Part shown: piece by piece, positions 18,074 through 24,297 of the stretch | Layout of the letters: each line of letters starts with the position of its first letter | Position numbering within the stretch: position 1 is the stretch's first letter | Source: Escherichia phage VEc20 | Direction: 5' to 3' (one strand) | Sequence record: MN022785.1 | Length of the DNA stretch: 64,000 nucleotides | Made by a program: the position numbers and the translations under genes | Notes under the pieces: model-generated | What the model was told of the DNA's origin: nothing | Databases searched by the model: none | The model's input: the letters and a program-made list of their open reading frames with translations, nothing else

Positions 18074-18100
18074 TTTGTGTTCCTCCGTAGTTGATAGTTG

Positions 18101-18131
18101 TATAGTACCACAGAGGAACAGTCTTGTAAAC
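18101..18131 (-). promoter_or_regulatory. PeSL-type early promoter-like element
   Basis: Minus strand GTTTACA, 17 nt, TACTATA; conserved gatagttgtatagtacca block. Confidence 0.5.
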
Positions 18132-18133
18132 AA

Positions 18134-18448
18134 CTAAAAGAAACTTCTTTCACAATTTTTTCCACTAAACCATGCGCTAACCGCTTTCTTAGTCTCAGGA
18201 GCAGTGTTATCCATAAACCATTCAAAGGCAGCCTTTTTATGATTCTGGAGGGCTTCTCGGGCTTTAATCTGCTCACGGTCTATTAACACTAACATATGAG
18301 CCTTTCTTGTCACCAGGGGCTTCTTATGATTTTTTGAATACTCCCAATCATTTGTCCATCGCATCGTTGTTGCGAATTGAAGTACAGCTTCTTTAATCTT
18401 AGTTTCGTAAATTTCACGAGCCTTTGAGTATAACATCATTACCTCCAT
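18134..18448 (-). CDS. Hypothetical protein
   Basis: 104-aa ORF. Confidence 0.5.
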   Translation of the reverse strand: MEVMMLYSKAREIYETKIKEAVLQFATTMRWTNDWEYSKNHKKPLVTRKAHMLVLIDREQIKAREALQNHKKAAFEWFMDNTAPETKKAVSAWFSGKNCERSFF

Positions 18449-18538: not shown

Positions 18539-19507
18539 TTATTTCAGAAGAGTAACCTCAGCGATTTCTTCCCAACCGTTTTTGTCGGTCATAATAAAGT
18601 CAGCAAGATAAAGAGCAGTACGCAGTGAAACATTACGTAAACGGTTAACATTGACTTTCATCCATGATAATGCTTTATAAGTTTCTTCATCAGAAAGACC
18701 GCGCTTTTGCATCATGTCGGTTGAAAGAATAACATCTTCAACCCTGACCATAATTTCTTCATTAGTGTGAACACCCAAATCTAAATAAACTGAGCGGGAC
18801 ACTAATGCTTGTAAATGTGGAGCAAGTTTAGTACCACGGTCTAATTCGCGGTCAATGTCAACGTTTGTGATAAAAACAATCGTTCCTTTAAATTCAAACT
18901 CACGCTCAATGCCTTTTTCTTCTAAGTAAGAAGATGCGGTGCTCCAGCAGACTTTGCGGGTCTCTCCGGTGTCCAGAGCAGCTTTCAGAAGATTAAGAAT
19001 GTCCATATCAGAGAAAACATCCACATCATCAATCAAAAGGACAGAATTCTCTTCACGATTATTCCAAAGCTGTTCATAAAGACCGATACCGGAGATTTTA
19101 CCGTTAATGCTTTTATATTCAATGTATCCATTATCATTTGCTTTATTCAAAGCTTTATCTAAAGAATACGTTTTACCAATACCCGCCGCACCAGAGATAA
19201 TTAATGAACGAATGTTTCCGTTAATAATACCATTCGTCATCATTCCCATAACATTAAATCTTTTATTAATGCGGGTTTTCATATCTTCATATGATTCTTT
19301 AACTTCTTCAACTTTTACACCATCATATGAAATGTCTGATTTGTAAACCCAAACACCGCGACGCTTACCGTCAATTTCAACAAAAACTTTACCATCTCCT
19401 TGTGCATCCACCGGAGCATTATCTGGGAACCATTCACCTAAGAGCTCAAAAGTTCCAGAGATTTCTTTACCAAAGTAGATACCCTTATTGATAGTTACAG
19501 TTTTCAT
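18539..19507 (-). CDS. P-loop NTPase (AAA-like) of unknown function
   Basis: Walker A GAAGIGKT and Walker B LLIDDVD; start set at MKTVT with GGAG 8 nt upstream. Confidence 0.65.
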   Translation of the reverse strand: MKTVTINKGIYFGKEISGTFELLGEWFPDNAPVDAQGDGKVFVEIDGKRRGVWVYKSDISYDGVKVEEVKESYEDMKTRINKRFNVMGMMTNGIINGNIRSLIISGAAGIGKTYSLDKALNKANDNGYIEYKSINGKISGIGLYEQLWNNREENSVLLIDDVDVFSDMDILNLLKAALDTGETRKVCWSTASSYLEEKGIEREFEFKGTIVFITNVDIDRELDRGTKLAPHLQALVSRSVYLDLGVHTNEEIMVRVEDVILSTDMMQKRGLSDEETYKALSWMKVNVNRLRNVSLRTALYLADFIMTDKNGWEEIAEVTLLK

Positions 19508-19542
19508 TTTATTCTCCAATTTTACATTTGTTTTGATAGGGT

Positions 19543-19988: not shown

Positions 19989-20021
19989 TGTTTTCCGTTT
20001 AAGTGTTTGTTTTGATAGTTG

Positions 20022-20052
20022 TATAGTACCATAAAGCTTTATGCTTGTAAAC
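20022..20052 (-). promoter_or_regulatory. PeSL-type early promoter-like element
   Basis: GTTTACA, 17 nt, TACTATA; preceded on the minus strand by the hairpin at 20081-20104 and an A/T-rich block. Confidence 0.5.
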
Positions 20053-20080
20053 AACTTTGTGAAAAATTTTTGAAATAAAA

Positions 20081-20104
20081 AAGGGGACCTCTAGGGCCCC
20101 TTTT
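20081..20104 (-). terminator. GC hairpin (stem-loop part of a PeSL-like element)
   Basis: ggggacctctagggcccc followed by a T-run on the minus strand. Confidence 0.45.
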
Positions 20105-20110
20105 ATGCTT

Positions 20111-20611
20111 TTATTCCATTTCTATTATATGCATGCTCTTTTTGCTATCAAAATATATGTTTTTAACTGTTAACTCCGAATTAATTGGCAATAAAAACTC
20201 TCTTTCATAATCCACCATAGAAAGATTATCATAAAGCTTATTAAGCTTATCATCATCAATCTGGCCAGATTCTTCAATTGCGATTAAATTTTCTAAAATT
20301 TCAATCATAGCAGTTGAATAGTCAAAAACGTTTGCATTTTTTAACACTATTAAAACATTAGTCATATAGCGTTCTGCCGCAAATGTTTCAGCTATATGAG
20401 ATTCACTACTAAAGGAAGTTATTCTTTTAAATTTGATTCTCCTATTAACTTCAAACTTATAAGATAGTACTTCCTCTATTGTAAGTCCTCTAAAAAGCAC
20501 GTCTTTAATCTCAAGTTTGTCTTTAATGTAATCATTAACACGCTTATGATTAAAATCATTAATTTTGTTGCCAAGGCATTTCATTAAAATATGCATTGTG
20601 TTTCTCTTCAA
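20111..20611 (-). CDS. Hypothetical protein, cassette flanked by near-identical promoter/stem-loop repeats
   Basis: 166-aa ORF. Confidence 0.55.
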   Translation of the reverse strand: MKRNTMHILMKCLGNKINDFNHKRVNDYIKDKLEIKDVLFRGLTIEEVLSYKFEVNRRIKFKRITSFSSESHIAETFAAERYMTNVLIVLKNANVFDYSTAMIEILENLIAIEESGQIDDDKLNKLYDNLSMVDYEREFLLPINSELTVKNIYFDSKKSMHIIEME

Positions 20612-20643: not shown

Positions 20644-20673
20644 ATTATAATATGCTTTATGATAGAAGTAAAC
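20644..20673 (-). promoter_or_regulatory. Early promoter-like element with canonical -10
   Basis: Minus strand TTTACT, 17 nt, TATAAT. Confidence 0.55.
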
Positions 20674-20703
20674 CACTTTGTGAAAAATTTTTGAAATAAA
20701 AAA

Positions 20704-20721
20704 GGGAGCCCGAAGGCTCCC
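20704..20721 (-). terminator. UUCG-tetraloop hairpin
   Basis: gggagcccgaaggctccc. Confidence 0.5.
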
Positions 20722-20723
20722 TA

Positions 20724-21737
20724 TCATTTATAATAACTTCGGTGGTTTTCAAGATAGACCTTCTCAAGGAAGTCATCCCAGAAACCCATGTCCACTTTTT
20801 GCTGCATACCGTTCTTAGAAGCTTCAGTAGATGCTGCTTCTACTTGATCGACCACATCTTCCAAAAACTCTTGAACGGTTTTAAATGGATGTTTACCCAA
20901 CTTCACGTCGAGAATAAATGGAGCGTCTTGAAGTGGATAAATCAAGTCGCCAGTTTTGTAAATTTCCAATAGTTGGAGTCCACCACGGCAAGCATGACTC
21001 AAAGCTTTCCAGTTAATACCTTCATTGGCTTCGGCCTTACGAGCACGTTCACCATATTCAGCATCTAATTTGTTCAGTGACTGCTTAAGCTCAATAAGAG
21101 AAAGAGTTGTCTGATATTTACGACCCAACACAGTGTAGAACGTTTGTGGACCTGTTTTCTCATGATTATGGAACACCCATTCACAGAATTCATTTTCTGG
21201 AAGACGATGCTTAATATCTTCAACTTTAGTGCGGCGCTGCTTAATAGAACCATCTTCTTGGTAATCAACCCATTGCTCGGGGATTTGATTAACTACTTTC
21301 AATACATCACGTAATGCAGCCAAACGAGAACCCTTAACGCCGTATTTAGAAGCTTGCTTACGGACATATCCTAAATATGATTTCATGTTAGTCGTATAAA
21401 AACGAGAACGATTGTCTTGAATAAACTTCCATACATCAGGCAAATCTGATTTAACCACTAGCTCAGGTGGAGTGTGAAGCATATCCAACGCTACAGTTTC
21501 ACCATCTGCTGCTAATTTAAAGAAATATTTAAGACTGTATAGTTCATGGTCAATATCATCTTTAGTGTTTTTAGATGATGTGTTGTTAGTGTTTTTACTC
21601 ATATGCTCTTTGACATTTCCGATAAGAATATCGCGAGCAGGAGGAACAAAGATTTCTTTAAAATCGACATCAGATTCTGGTGTAGAAGTTCCATAAAGAT
21701 GACTACCAAAATAACTTTTCATTACTGTTTTCATCAT
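20724..21737 (-). CDS. Nucleotidyltransferase-like protein (Pol-beta superfamily motif)
   Basis: 337 aa; N-terminal GSHLYGTSTPESDVDF (Gly-Ser followed by a DxD pair) and a downstream acidic residue (ALDMLH). Confidence 0.6.
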   Translation of the reverse strand: MMKTVMKSYFGSHLYGTSTPESDVDFKEIFVPPARDILIGNVKEHMSKNTNNTSSKNTKDDIDHELYSLKYFFKLAADGETVALDMLHTPPELVVKSDLPDVWKFIQDNRSRFYTTNMKSYLGYVRKQASKYGVKGSRLAALRDVLKVVNQIPEQWVDYQEDGSIKQRRTKVEDIKHRLPENEFCEWVFHNHEKTGPQTFYTVLGRKYQTTLSLIELKQSLNKLDAEYGERARKAEANEGINWKALSHACRGGLQLLEIYKTGDLIYPLQDAPFILDVKLGKHPFKTVQEFLEDVVDQVEAASTEASKNGMQQKVDMGFWDDFLEKVYLENHRSYYK

Positions 21738-22195
21738 TCAGCCTTATATTCAATAACAGGACACACTTTAGCTTTACGAGCTTTTAAAAATTCAACGATA
21801 ATCGATTTCTTGGGTTGAATAGGAGGTAAACCTTTATTTTTCCTATCAATGTTTTCTACGTGTAAAGCATAATCCTTTTTCCATTTATAATCTTTATATT
21901 TTTCACGCAAATGTACAGGAATAACAAATGAACCAATAATAAGTAAAACAAGCAAAATGGCAAGTATAAATGCTGATGGAAGCAAAGTCCATAAACTACC
22001 GAAAATAAGCCATCGTTGTAAGCTTTCTGCACAAATAATTGTTAGCCCTACGAGTATAGCACACCCAAAAATAGAAACGAAAAATGTAGGGATAACAATA
22101 GACCAAAAATATGCGCATAGTGTCTTAGGTCGTTGCCATTCATCGTTAAACAATTTGAATAATTTATAGTGCCAAGAGTTTTCATTAATAATCAT
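21734..22195 (-). CDS. Membrane protein (2-3 predicted TM helices), ATGA-coupled to the nucleotidyltransferase-like gene
   Basis: 153 aa with long hydrophobic stretches. Confidence 0.55.
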   Translation of the reverse strand: MIINENSWHYKLFKLFNDEWQRPKTLCAYFWSIVIPTFFVSIFGCAILVGLTIICAESLQRWLIFGSLWTLLPSAFILAILLVLLIIGSFVIPVHLREKYKDYKWKKDYALHVENIDRKNKGLPPIQPKKSIIVEFLKARKAKVCPVIEYKAE

Positions 22196-22197
22196 AA

Positions 22198-22719
22198 CTA
22201 TCCTTTCATTGAAGGCGTAACAGTTGTTAAATACTTAATCATAGCTTCAGCTTCTGATTTTGATAGTGAAATTTCTCCATTGTTTTGACGAATAGAAATA
22301 AAATCCGGATGACGGTCACCACCAGCTTTTAAAACACACATATAAGTATCAGTTTCATCTTCAATATTTGAAATGATTGAAGCAGTTCCACATGAATGCG
22401 GTTTTTGATAAATCAATACAGCTTTTCTTCCGCCATTTGACTGTTCATAAACTTTTAATACATCAAACAAATCACTTCTTTTATCAATAGCTAAAATGTT
22501 ATTTTCATCTTCAATGTTAAATCCTTCGGATACTTCATAAAGTGTCACCCATAAATCGCCAATATCAATAACAGCGTTCACTTTTCCATGACTTTCAAGA
22601 GCATGACAAATTTTCTTGATTTCGTCATAACTCATTTTAATAATATCATCTCCTTGAATAAGAAAGATGTCATTTTTAAATTCAACACGAATTAAACCAC
22701 TTCCACTTGAAATAAACAT
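22198..22719 (-). CDS. Hypothetical protein, paralog of 22726..23283
   Basis: 173 aa; C-terminal tail SKSEAEAMIKYLTTVTPSM resembles TKDEAIALKTYLDSVIPTM in the neighbour. Confidence 0.55.
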   Translation of the reverse strand: MFISSGSGLIRVEFKNDIFLIQGDDIIKMSYDEIKKICHALESHGKVNAVIDIGDLWVTLYEVSEGFNIEDENNILAIDKRSDLFDVLKVYEQSNGGRKAVLIYQKPHSCGTASIISNIEDETDTYMCVLKAGGDRHPDFISIRQNNGEISLSKSEAEAMIKYLTTVTPSMKG

Positions 22720-22725
22720 ATTTCC

Positions 22726-23283
22726 TCACTTTGAAATCATAGTTGGAATGACAGAATCAAGATAAGTCTTTAGTGCAATAGCTTCGTCTTTGGTAAATGT
22801 GACAATATGTGATCGAAAATCGTCGATTTGGCGAATAGTTAAGACATCTCCCTCTTCATAACATTTTGATACATTTAAAAGAGTTTCATCATTCTGATTG
22901 CAAGAGTTAGTAATAATAGCATTGCAATTTTTGAGCCATTTTAAACTATGTTTTCTTTCATTAGAATAATAAAAATATTTAATCTTAGCTATAAAACTAT
23001 CCCAATGGATAACTGATAAACACATTGACTCACTTTTAATATTAAATCCTGGGCATGAAGAATAAAAATGAATTTTGTGCTCATCATTGATACTTACTAT
23101 TTTATCAGTATAAGGATATTCAATTTGGGTTAAATGAATGATTTCACTAGGCGTAAAATATAGCATATCGTCTTCTTGCGTCAAACGATACATGTTATTT
23201 ACTTTTTCTATAGCCAATTCACCAAAAAGCGGACTAACTTCTAATACTAATCGTTTCATATTGATTCTCTTCGACTCACTCAC
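22726..23283 (-). CDS. Hypothetical protein, paralog of 22198..22719
   Basis: 185-aa ORF. Confidence 0.55.
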   Translation of the reverse strand: MSESKRINMKRLVLEVSPLFGELAIEKVNNMYRLTQEDDMLYFTPSEIIHLTQIEYPYTDKIVSINDEHKIHFYSSCPGFNIKSESMCLSVIHWDSFIAKIKYFYYSNERKHSLKWLKNCNAIITNSCNQNDETLLNVSKCYEEGDVLTIRQIDDFRSHIVTFTKDEAIALKTYLDSVIPTMISK

Positions 23284-23418: not shown

Positions 23419-23448
23419 ACTATACCATAACCTTGCCAACTTGTAAAC
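23419..23448 (-). promoter_or_regulatory. Early promoter-like element
   Basis: Minus strand TTTACA, 17 nt, TATAGT. Confidence 0.45.
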
Positions 23449-24202: not shown

Positions 24203-24229
24203 GATGTTCTCCTCTTTATCCGATGGTTG

Positions 24230-24260
24230 TATAGTACCACAGCTCAAACGGAAAGTAAAC
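24230..24260 (-). promoter_or_regulatory. PeSL-type early promoter-like element
   Basis: GTTTAC, spacer, TACTATA; UUCG hairpin (24276-24293) just upstream on the minus strand. Confidence 0.45.
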
Positions 24261-24297
24261 CGGTAAAATGAAAAAAGTCTCCCGAAGGAGACTAATG

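Follow-up and report, generated by a model that had tools for sequence, protein, structure and literature searches.

The window examined here, a stretch of 64,000 nucleotides from Escherichia phage VEc20 (sequence record MN022785.1), carries on its minus strand a nucleotidyltransferase (NTase) gene that overlaps the gene of a small membrane protein. An earlier note on this DNA had read the two as a nucleotide-signalling module and had offered, as an alternative, an anti-defence or RNA-modifying enzyme. Our analysis identifies the NTase as a known gene, T4 nrdC.11, of a known and recently characterised family, RlaP, with a predicted role in RNA repair; the RNA-modifying half of that alternative is the best-supported reading. 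The explanation that we judge probable, although by no means secure, is that this enzyme repairs trimmed RNA 3' ends and that the membrane protein is a separate protein, which is its neighbour through inherited gene order. The features on which the argument turns are the following:

20724..21737, minus strand: NTase gene, ortholog of T4 nrdC.11; 337 amino acids (aa) from the ATG at 21737, 336 aa from the ATG at 21734
21734..22195, minus strand: gene of a membrane protein with two predicted transmembrane (TM) helices, 153 aa, phrog_944 (open reading frame (ORF), hydropathy, AlphaFold)
21732..21737, minus strand: ATGATG junction, in which the membrane-gene stop TGA overlaps both candidate NTase starts (from the sequence)
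21660..21707, minus strand: codons for GSHLYGTSTPESDVDF, the hG[GS] motif and DxD metal-binding carboxylates (G10 S11 ... D22 D24), invariant in 66 homologs
21549..21551, minus strand: D62 codon; this third Asp, invariant in alignments A1 and A4, stands at the beginning of the modelled strand 61-67

Identity and family of the nucleotidyltransferase

The window derives from a Tequatrovirus, a coliphage of the T4/T2 type. The 16-kb stretch around the pair is 96.8% identical to Escherichia phage vB_EcoM_G29 and is collinear with T2 and T4. Over its full length, the NTase shares 97.6% identity with T4 NrdC.11 (NP_049709, 336 aa) and 99.1% with the T2 protein; the earlier note had been unable to assign it to a T4 gene. 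The gene has been listed since 2006 among the conserved ORFs of T4-like phages, as one that encodes a nucleotidyltransferase domain. The T4 segment from nrdC.11 to mobD.3 is lost in viable genome-reduced mutants, and this loss fits an accessory, laboratory-dispensable gene. The earlier note had also allowed that the pair might turn out to be a conserved, already characterised core gene of T4, and half of this applies: nrdC.11 is conserved and assigned to a family, but it can be dispensed with in the laboratory. A tblastn search found the NTase in 1,517 phage records, which include Tequatrovirus and Mosigvirus as well as T4-like phages of Klebsiella, Acinetobacter, Aeromonas and Vibrio, while an exhaustive HMMER search recovered relatives in 3,318 clusters (50% identity) at E <=1e-3 and in 803 at E <=1e-30. 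Many of the nrdC.11 orthologs in GenBank are labelled 'thioredoxin' and one is labelled 'HNH homing endonuclease', which looks like an annotation error that presumably arose from the name nrdC.

Both ORFs, of 337 and 153 aa, lie at the coordinates given in the earlier note, and the N-terminus of the 337-aa product, MMKTVMKSYFGSHLYGTSTPESDVDF, fits the Pol-beta pattern hG[GS]-x10-DhDh. Residue numbers given here follow the 336-aa form, which begins at the second ATG. The Gly-Ser and Asp residues that the note had proposed for comparison with catalytic residues (G10, S11, D22 and D24) are invariant, together with D62, in an alignment of 66 diverse homologs (A1) and likewise in alignment A4. D62 is presumed to be the third catalytic carboxylate. 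Four basic residues of the C-terminal domain (K243, H247, R250 and K278) are also invariant in A1. A Pfam search matched the NTase to RlaP (PF10127) at 44.6 bits against a cut-off of 23 (E 1.8e-11), and PF10127 was the one family matched by every one of the 66 relatives in A1. The protein additionally matches phrog_388 at 5.5e-136. An NCBIfam scan of the NTase gave no match that reached a cut-off, and the PADLOC defence-system models matched neither the NTase nor the membrane protein.

These family searches also bear on the idea that the NTase is an MntA/MNT-type protein AMPylase, which neutralises host HEPN-domain RNase toxins or other host proteins. NCBIfam returned a weak MntA match over the GS...D motif (E 0.057, about 13.3 bits against a cut-off of 60). 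However, this match lies far under its cut-off and covers only 18 residues, NTP_transf_2 scored 13.6 bits against 21, all 66 relatives were assigned to RlaP, and the two RlaP enzymes that have been assayed left E. coli proteins unlabelled (PMC12776372). A protein AMPylase is accordingly considered distinctly unlikely.

AlphaFold was run on both proteins, as the earlier note had advised. The AlphaFold2 model of the NTase (predicted local distance difference test, pLDDT, 94.3) contains an NTase core at residues 1-112, helices at 213-307 and a final helix at 316-335, and this modelled two-domain layout appears to match the description of the PfRlaP crystal structure. The fold matches of the model are all Pol-beta NTases (HalB, 3c18, KNTase, LinB and AadA); the closest solved fold is HalB of the Hailong system (PDB 9dbh/9dbj), and neither cGAS, DncV nor another CD-NTase is among the top fold matches listed. 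A shortened form of the NTase occurs in Krischvirus, where the protein of Escherichia phage MIZ3 (L009 2504-3202) has 232 aa and aligns in two blast pieces with 72% query coverage; it apparently lacks either the middle insertion or a portion of the C-terminal domain.

The activity of the family was characterised with the Pseudomonas fluorescens and P. aeruginosa enzymes (Carruthers, Fatma and Huang, bioRxiv December 2025, PMC12776372). PfRlaP and PaRlaP add one or two nucleoside monophosphates (or deoxyadenosine monophosphate) to an RNA 3'-OH, with a preference for the 3' end of the tRNA 5' half in a nicked-tRNA mimic, and they do not use DNA or E. coli proteins as substrates (PMC12776372). 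In the RlaP crystal structure an NTase domain is joined to a helical one, and three Asp residues are strictly conserved (PMC12776372). In the same work T4 NrdC.11 is named an RlaP, in cluster 5 of the similarity network, and the role suggested for RlaP is defence against 'smart' ribotoxins, among them RloC, which remove a nucleotide after cutting tRNA (PMC12776372). According to PMC7824862, Burroughs and Aravind had earlier predicted that phage RlaP restores the nucleotides removed by RloC-type nucleases.

By homology with these enzymes, we infer that NrdC.11 acts on RNA 3' ends and serves against trimming nucleases. Working without a template, it would extend the 3'-OH of broken RNA by one or two nucleotides; its substrate would probably be a tRNA 5' half that a host RloC-type anticodon nuclease has cut and trimmed, and the phage Pnkp and Rnl1/Rnl2 enzymes would then rejoin the full-length tRNA. 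Pnkp and Rnl1/Rnl2 are encoded elsewhere in T-even genomes. Genes for RNA ligases or end healing were not found next to the NTase in the window, in T4, in T2 or among ten neighbours sampled from other phage loci. A different arrangement is present in the IMG/VR contig L117, which encodes on one strand an Rnl1-type ligase, a 65-aa ORF, a homolog of the membrane protein, a 117-aa ORF, ThyX and a 92-aa ORF, followed by a metallophosphoesterase, a 64-aa ORF, an AAA_33 kinase and an RlaP whose gene overlaps that of the P-loop kinase by 14 nt. This RlaP is 46% identical to the NTase of the window and lies within 5.3 kb of the same-strand metallophosphoesterase and Rnl1-type ligase. The gene content of L117 is independent evidence, from context, that the phage RlaP clade may act in RNA repair.

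Several observations weigh against this view of the enzyme. The PF10127 profile aligns only to residues 7-135 of the NTase, and the AlphaFold2 model of the phage-clade enzyme contains a beta-rich insertion at about 154-208. HalB, the closest fold, makes oligodeoxyadenylate (oligo-dA), and therefore another product is possible for NrdC.11. Sequence searches of the PDB with the full NTase, its N-terminal domain and the A1 and A4 profiles returned no NTase and no candidate PfRlaP, and a literature search turned up no paper in which the phage protein NrdC.11 was assayed. In most T4-like loci, moreover, the neighbours of the NTase are mixed (helicases, NUDIX proteins and DNA methylases) and are not RNA-repair genes.

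The membrane protein and its linkage to nrdC.11

Two hydrophobic segments were recognised in the 153-aa protein:

22028..22120, minus strand: hydrophobic helix 1, residues ~26-56 (Kyte-Doolittle; AlphaFold helix 26-65)
21917..22012, minus strand: hydrophobic helix 2, residues ~62-93 (Kyte-Doolittle; AlphaFold helix 68-120)

The Kyte-Doolittle maxima of these segments are 2.6 and 3.1, respectively, and the AlphaFold model (pLDDT 90.8) is a hairpin of two long helices. A membrane protein with two or three TM helices had been expected; membrane protein and two helices are borne out, whereas hydropathy and model predict no third helix. The C-terminal tail is rich in lysine and arginine, and terminal strands are predicted at residues 2-4 and 149-151. 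These strands and the charge distribution suggest that both ends of the protein would be cytoplasmic and would pair with each other. Among 49 family sequences, with identities to the window protein down to 21%, H9, C27, Y29 and C145 are invariant; they lie in the predicted cytoplasmic terminal segments, where a metal site or a disulfide is possible. The protein matches phrog_944 and was found by tblastn in 873 phage records, and its family comprises a 543-member cluster of intact copies and, in a profile search, 152 clusters at 90% identity. A Pfam scan gave no family for the protein and only scattered hydrophobic matches for the 49 family members, and a fold search with the model found no specific fold relative. 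Both genes are under purifying selection, with ratios of nonsynonymous to synonymous substitution (dN/dS), measured against two close relatives, of 0.12-0.18 for the membrane gene and 0.03-0.06 for the NTase. On this sequence evidence, the 153-aa ORF is a real and conserved gene of an uncharacterised phage family that has no Pfam model.

The translational coupling of the two genes through an ATGA overlap, which the earlier note had described, is confirmed as a 4-nt overlap at the first ATG. The junction on the coding strand reads GCT GAA TGA TG, so that the upstream TGA shares 4 nt (ATGA) with the first ATG and 1 nt (TGATG) with the second. A Shine-Dalgarno AAGG stands 4 nt ahead of the first and 7 nt ahead of the second, and the second, which gives the 336-aa form, is the annotated start in T4, T2 and most database homologs. 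The genes are coupled whichever ATG is used. Coupling was considered as a sign of partnership and was rejected. Overlaps of 4 nt are common in this region, with 6 of ~32 same-strand junctions in the T4 annotation and 6 of ~30 in that of T2, and since they make up about a fifth of the T-even junctions here, the overlap is not unusual in itself.

Comparison across phages demonstrated that the linkage between the NTase and the membrane gene is facultative in both directions. A survey of T4-like genomes for the pair had been suggested in the earlier note, and its outcome went against a fixed pairing. In 78 NTase loci from IMG/VR, the membrane gene abuts the NTase in 13, lies 0.35-2.6 kb upstream on the same strand in 33 and is absent within 5 kb in 32. 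Conversely, of 35 membrane-gene loci collected by a family-profile search, 13 contain an RlaP within 5 kb (one in reversed order) and 22 contain none. At >=80% identity, tblastn found the NTase in 598 phage records and the membrane protein in 426. Three genes separate the two in Jiaodavirus, and one does so in Acinetobacter phage AM101 and in a metagenomic contig; in three contigs they are ~8-9 kb apart on opposite strands. In T4, mobD replaces positions 21739-22700 of the window (L002 14450-15259) without leaving a membrane-gene remnant, and its breakpoint falls exactly at the nrdC.11 start codon. In T2, the copy of the membrane gene (L001 6691-7147) is frameshifted into two reading frames that split within TM1. 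T4 and T2, both classic laboratory phages, thus have no intact membrane gene, and truncated copies occur in several other isolates (P0125, P0127 and P0129).

Substitution by another membrane protein upstream of the NTase was likewise considered and rejected. The upstream ORF is mostly non-hydrophobic in the 29 loci without a membrane homolog, which indicates that loci without the family do not carry a different membrane protein instead; in a Slopekvirus, in KVP40, in an Aeromonas phage and in a Krischvirus, the NTase is preceded by a non-membrane gene. Inherited gene order, combined with the tight packing of T-even genomes, accounts best for the adjacency, rather than any mutual need of the two proteins. 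Indels mediated by PeSL elements and homing endonucleases would then change the content of the interval between the genes. The membrane protein is accessory and uncharacterised; it often accompanies the NTase but can be dispensed with, and it is likely to be independent of it. In the mechanism outlined above it would be a separate small inner-membrane protein with two TM helices.

The facultative linkage also bears on the signalling module that the earlier note had proposed. In a CBASS-like module, the membrane protein would be an effector switched on by a nucleotide signal, cyclic or linear, from the NTase, and what speaks for it is architecture alone, that is, an NTase beside a TM protein with overlapping genes. 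Neither CD-NTase/SMODS models in Pfam nor PADLOC models matched the proteins, no known CBASS effector class was met next to the NTase in PADLOC, Pfam and fold searches of the membrane protein, and the characterised activity of the RlaP family is RNA 3'-end extension (PMC12776372). The pairing, moreover, can be absent from either side. This proposal is largely refuted and has hardly any probability left.

A second possibility that requires the membrane protein is related to the Hailong system, in which, as a review describes it, HalB is the oligo-dA-synthesising NTase of a two-gene defence operon composed of a TM protein and an NTase. Here the NTase would make an oligonucleotide that gates the membrane protein, or it would act against Hailong by replenishing the inhibitory oligo-dA that keeps the HalA channel closed. 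The HalB catalytic pair D21/D23 (title of PDB 9dbi) occupies the same N-terminal position as D22/D24, the two-gene layout of TM protein and NTase given in the review is similar, RlaP enzymes accept dATP on RNA primers (PMC12776372), and the cytoplasmic tail of the membrane protein is strongly basic. Nevertheless, no sequence similarity to HalB was detected even with profiles at E up to 10, and RlaP adds only one or two nucleotides and does not use DNA primers (PMC12776372). A HalA-type TM ion-channel partner in an obligate two-gene operon was not found here; the two genes are linked only facultatively, and in T4 nothing is left of the membrane gene. We therefore hold a Hailong-like or anti-Hailong function to be highly unlikely.

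The inference that the membrane protein is independent of nrdC.11 is itself challenged by two lines of evidence. In 46 of the 78 NTase loci, which range from Tevenvirinae to Acinetobacter Twarogvirinae, the membrane gene is found no more than 2.6 kb upstream of the NTase and in the same orientation, and a weak hint from gene content would connect the membrane family to RNA repair. The latter comes from two phage RNA-repair clusters in IMG/VR contigs in which the family is embedded beside a ligase (L117 640-5960 and L047 3923-6767); the L047 cluster consists of a metallophosphoesterase, two small ORFs, the membrane protein, an Rnl1-type ligase and an AAA_33 kinase. A non-obligate tie to phage RNA repair may be imagined, in which the membrane protein localises or regulates the repair enzymes or counters a membrane-associated nuclease. 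The same-strand upstream position in two Straboviridae subfamilies would agree with it, as would the surroundings in L047 and L117, with an Rnl1-type ligase alongside and genes for a P-loop kinase and a phosphoesterase close by, and the conserved terminal motifs (H9, C27, Y29 and C145), predicted to be cytoplasmic and to pair. However, 22 of the 35 membrane-gene loci lack an NTase within 5 kb, and when the ligase, kinase and phosphoesterase of L047 and the ligase of L117 served as phmmer queries, L047 and L117 were the only loci in which such genes turned up. These are related lineages and therefore amount to roughly one observation. Their clusters also hold unrelated nucleotide-metabolism genes (ThyX and a phosphoribosyl pyrophosphate (PRPP)-synthetase-like gene), and T4, the phage with the best-documented tRNA repair, has no membrane gene. 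Such a tie is unlikely. A broader version, in which the two-TM protein and the RlaP-type NTase (elsewhere together with the Rnl1-type ligase and the P-loop kinase) form a membrane-associated nucleic-acid module, either a tethered tRNA-repair station or a Hailong-like oligonucleotide control acting through the basic tail, appears very unlikely. The explanation retained is NrdC.11 as an RNA 3'-end repair enzyme with the membrane protein as a separate neighbour.

Transcription unit and neighbouring genes

The surroundings of the pair contain the following elements:

20703..20722, minus strand: intrinsic terminator, AGGGAGCC-TTCG-GGCTCCCT followed by TTTTTT, directly 3' of the NTase stop; ends the transcription unit
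20668..20727, minus strand: PeSL-like terminator/promoter cassette, 83% identical to the copy at 20047-20106
20672-20644, minus strand: promoter-like site serving the next downstream gene; adjoins the NTase terminator
23419..23447, minus strand: promoter-like site, TTTACA-17-TATAGT with an extended TG; a consensus match only and the likely start of the unit
22198..23283, minus strand: two tandem y05I-like genes, 173 aa (22198-22719) and 185 aa (22726-23283); Pfam PF24449 and PF24448

A gap of 2 nt separates the membrane gene from the 173-aa y05I-like gene upstream of it. From this arrangement, a single transcription unit is likely, running from a promoter near 23430 through the two y05I-like genes, the membrane protein and the NTase to the terminator at 20703-20722. 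Cassettes of a terminator and an early promoter are repeated at 18091-18150, 20012-20106, 20668-20727 and 24220-24293 (62-83% identical; repeat families D1, D2 and D4), and these repeat families coincide with the terminator and promoter matches. The earlier note was right to place the pair in a hyperplastic region bounded by promoter/stem-loop repeats. In T4-like genomes, PeSL elements are reported to serve as sites of recombination within hyperplastic regions and to mediate gene shuffling there (PMC2839356, PMC4122927), and by their make-up the repeated cassettes of the window can be equated with them.

The tandem y05I-like paralogs belong to the T4 y05I/MobD.1 family (PF24449 and PF24448, 'putative transcription factor'). 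T4 retains one of them (mobD.1); the mobD insertion there removed most of the second y05I-like gene along with the membrane gene. On the other side, the window has three additional ORFs relative to T4 between nrdC.10 and nrdC.11. Directly downstream of the NTase unit is a 166-aa ORF (20111-20611, minus strand), with its own promoter-like site at 20672-20644 and a terminator at 20100-20084. It matches phrog_832, 'RNA polymerase ADP-ribosylase' (4.9e-24), and the R / S-x-S / E-x-E motifs of ADP-ribosyltransferases can be discerned by eye (VLFRG, TSFSSES and YEREF); T2 has a counterpart at the same place (T2_097) and T4 has none. The segment 19577-19986 (minus strand) encodes an 87-aa DUF4031 protein (PF13223, 1.1e-21) and a 49-aa ORF that overlap by 4 nt and are absent from this place in T4. 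The gene nrdC.10 itself (18539-19519, minus strand) encodes a 326-aa P-loop ATPase with weak STAND/AAA matches (nSTAND3 1.2e-4, below cut-off), and it adjoins nrdC.11 conservedly in T4, T2, RB69 and Acinetobacter phage AM101.

Significance and comparison with known systems

Should the RlaP assignment hold in vivo, nrdC.11 would supply a step that has been missing from the classic account of tRNA repair in T4. Repair by Pnkp and Rnl1 alone fails once a host RloC-type nuclease has not only cleaved the anticodon loop but also taken out a nucleotide, and putting the nucleotide back would, if true, be the next move of the phage. The arms-race idea is already published (PMC12776372, and Burroughs and Aravind as reported in PMC7824862). 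The present analysis adds that the membrane gene can be dropped from the tRNA-repair model, that one lineage at least connects the phage RlaP clade with genes for RNA end healing, and that Hailong HalB is the nearest solved fold. It also draws attention to a widespread and unnamed two-TM phage family, with an invariant His, an invariant Tyr and two invariant Cys, that merits a study of its own. With nrdC.11 present in more than 1,500 sequenced T4-like phages, a test of the arms race would be easy to set up.

Among the known systems, the pairs of a CBASS CD-NTase with a TM effector resemble the present one in the Pol-beta superfamily and in the juxtaposition of NTase and TM genes only, whereas neither protein matches them by sequence, profile or fold. 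Hailong HalB shares the N-terminal position of its catalytic Asp pair and an adjoining TM-protein gene; it differs in length (~217 aa versus 336 aa here) and in setting, the present gene being that of a lytic phage and not of a host defence island. Kanamycin nucleotidyltransferase/ANT(4') and the minimal NTases of MNT-HEPN systems are only 7-12% identical in sequence, with low TM-scores (0.24-0.30); they differ further by the lack of a Pfam or NCBIfam match at cut-off and by their acceptors, which are small molecules or proteins.

T4 NrdC.11 occupies the same place, between nrdC.10 and the mobD/rI region, and has the same terminator-bounded 3' end; its upstream neighbour is mobD, an HNH homing endonuclease, whereas the window carries the membrane gene and a second y05I-like gene there. 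Relative to RlaP (PF10127) as a whole, the phage clade forms a separate network cluster with the beta-rich insertion, and the bacterial enzymes are encoded within rtcB-rtcA operons (PMC12776372) while the T-even gene stands beside no RNA ligase. What the phage NTase has in common with RlaP is the GS...DxD signature with a third invariant Asp and, in the predicted structure, a C-terminal helical domain that ends in a terminal helix.

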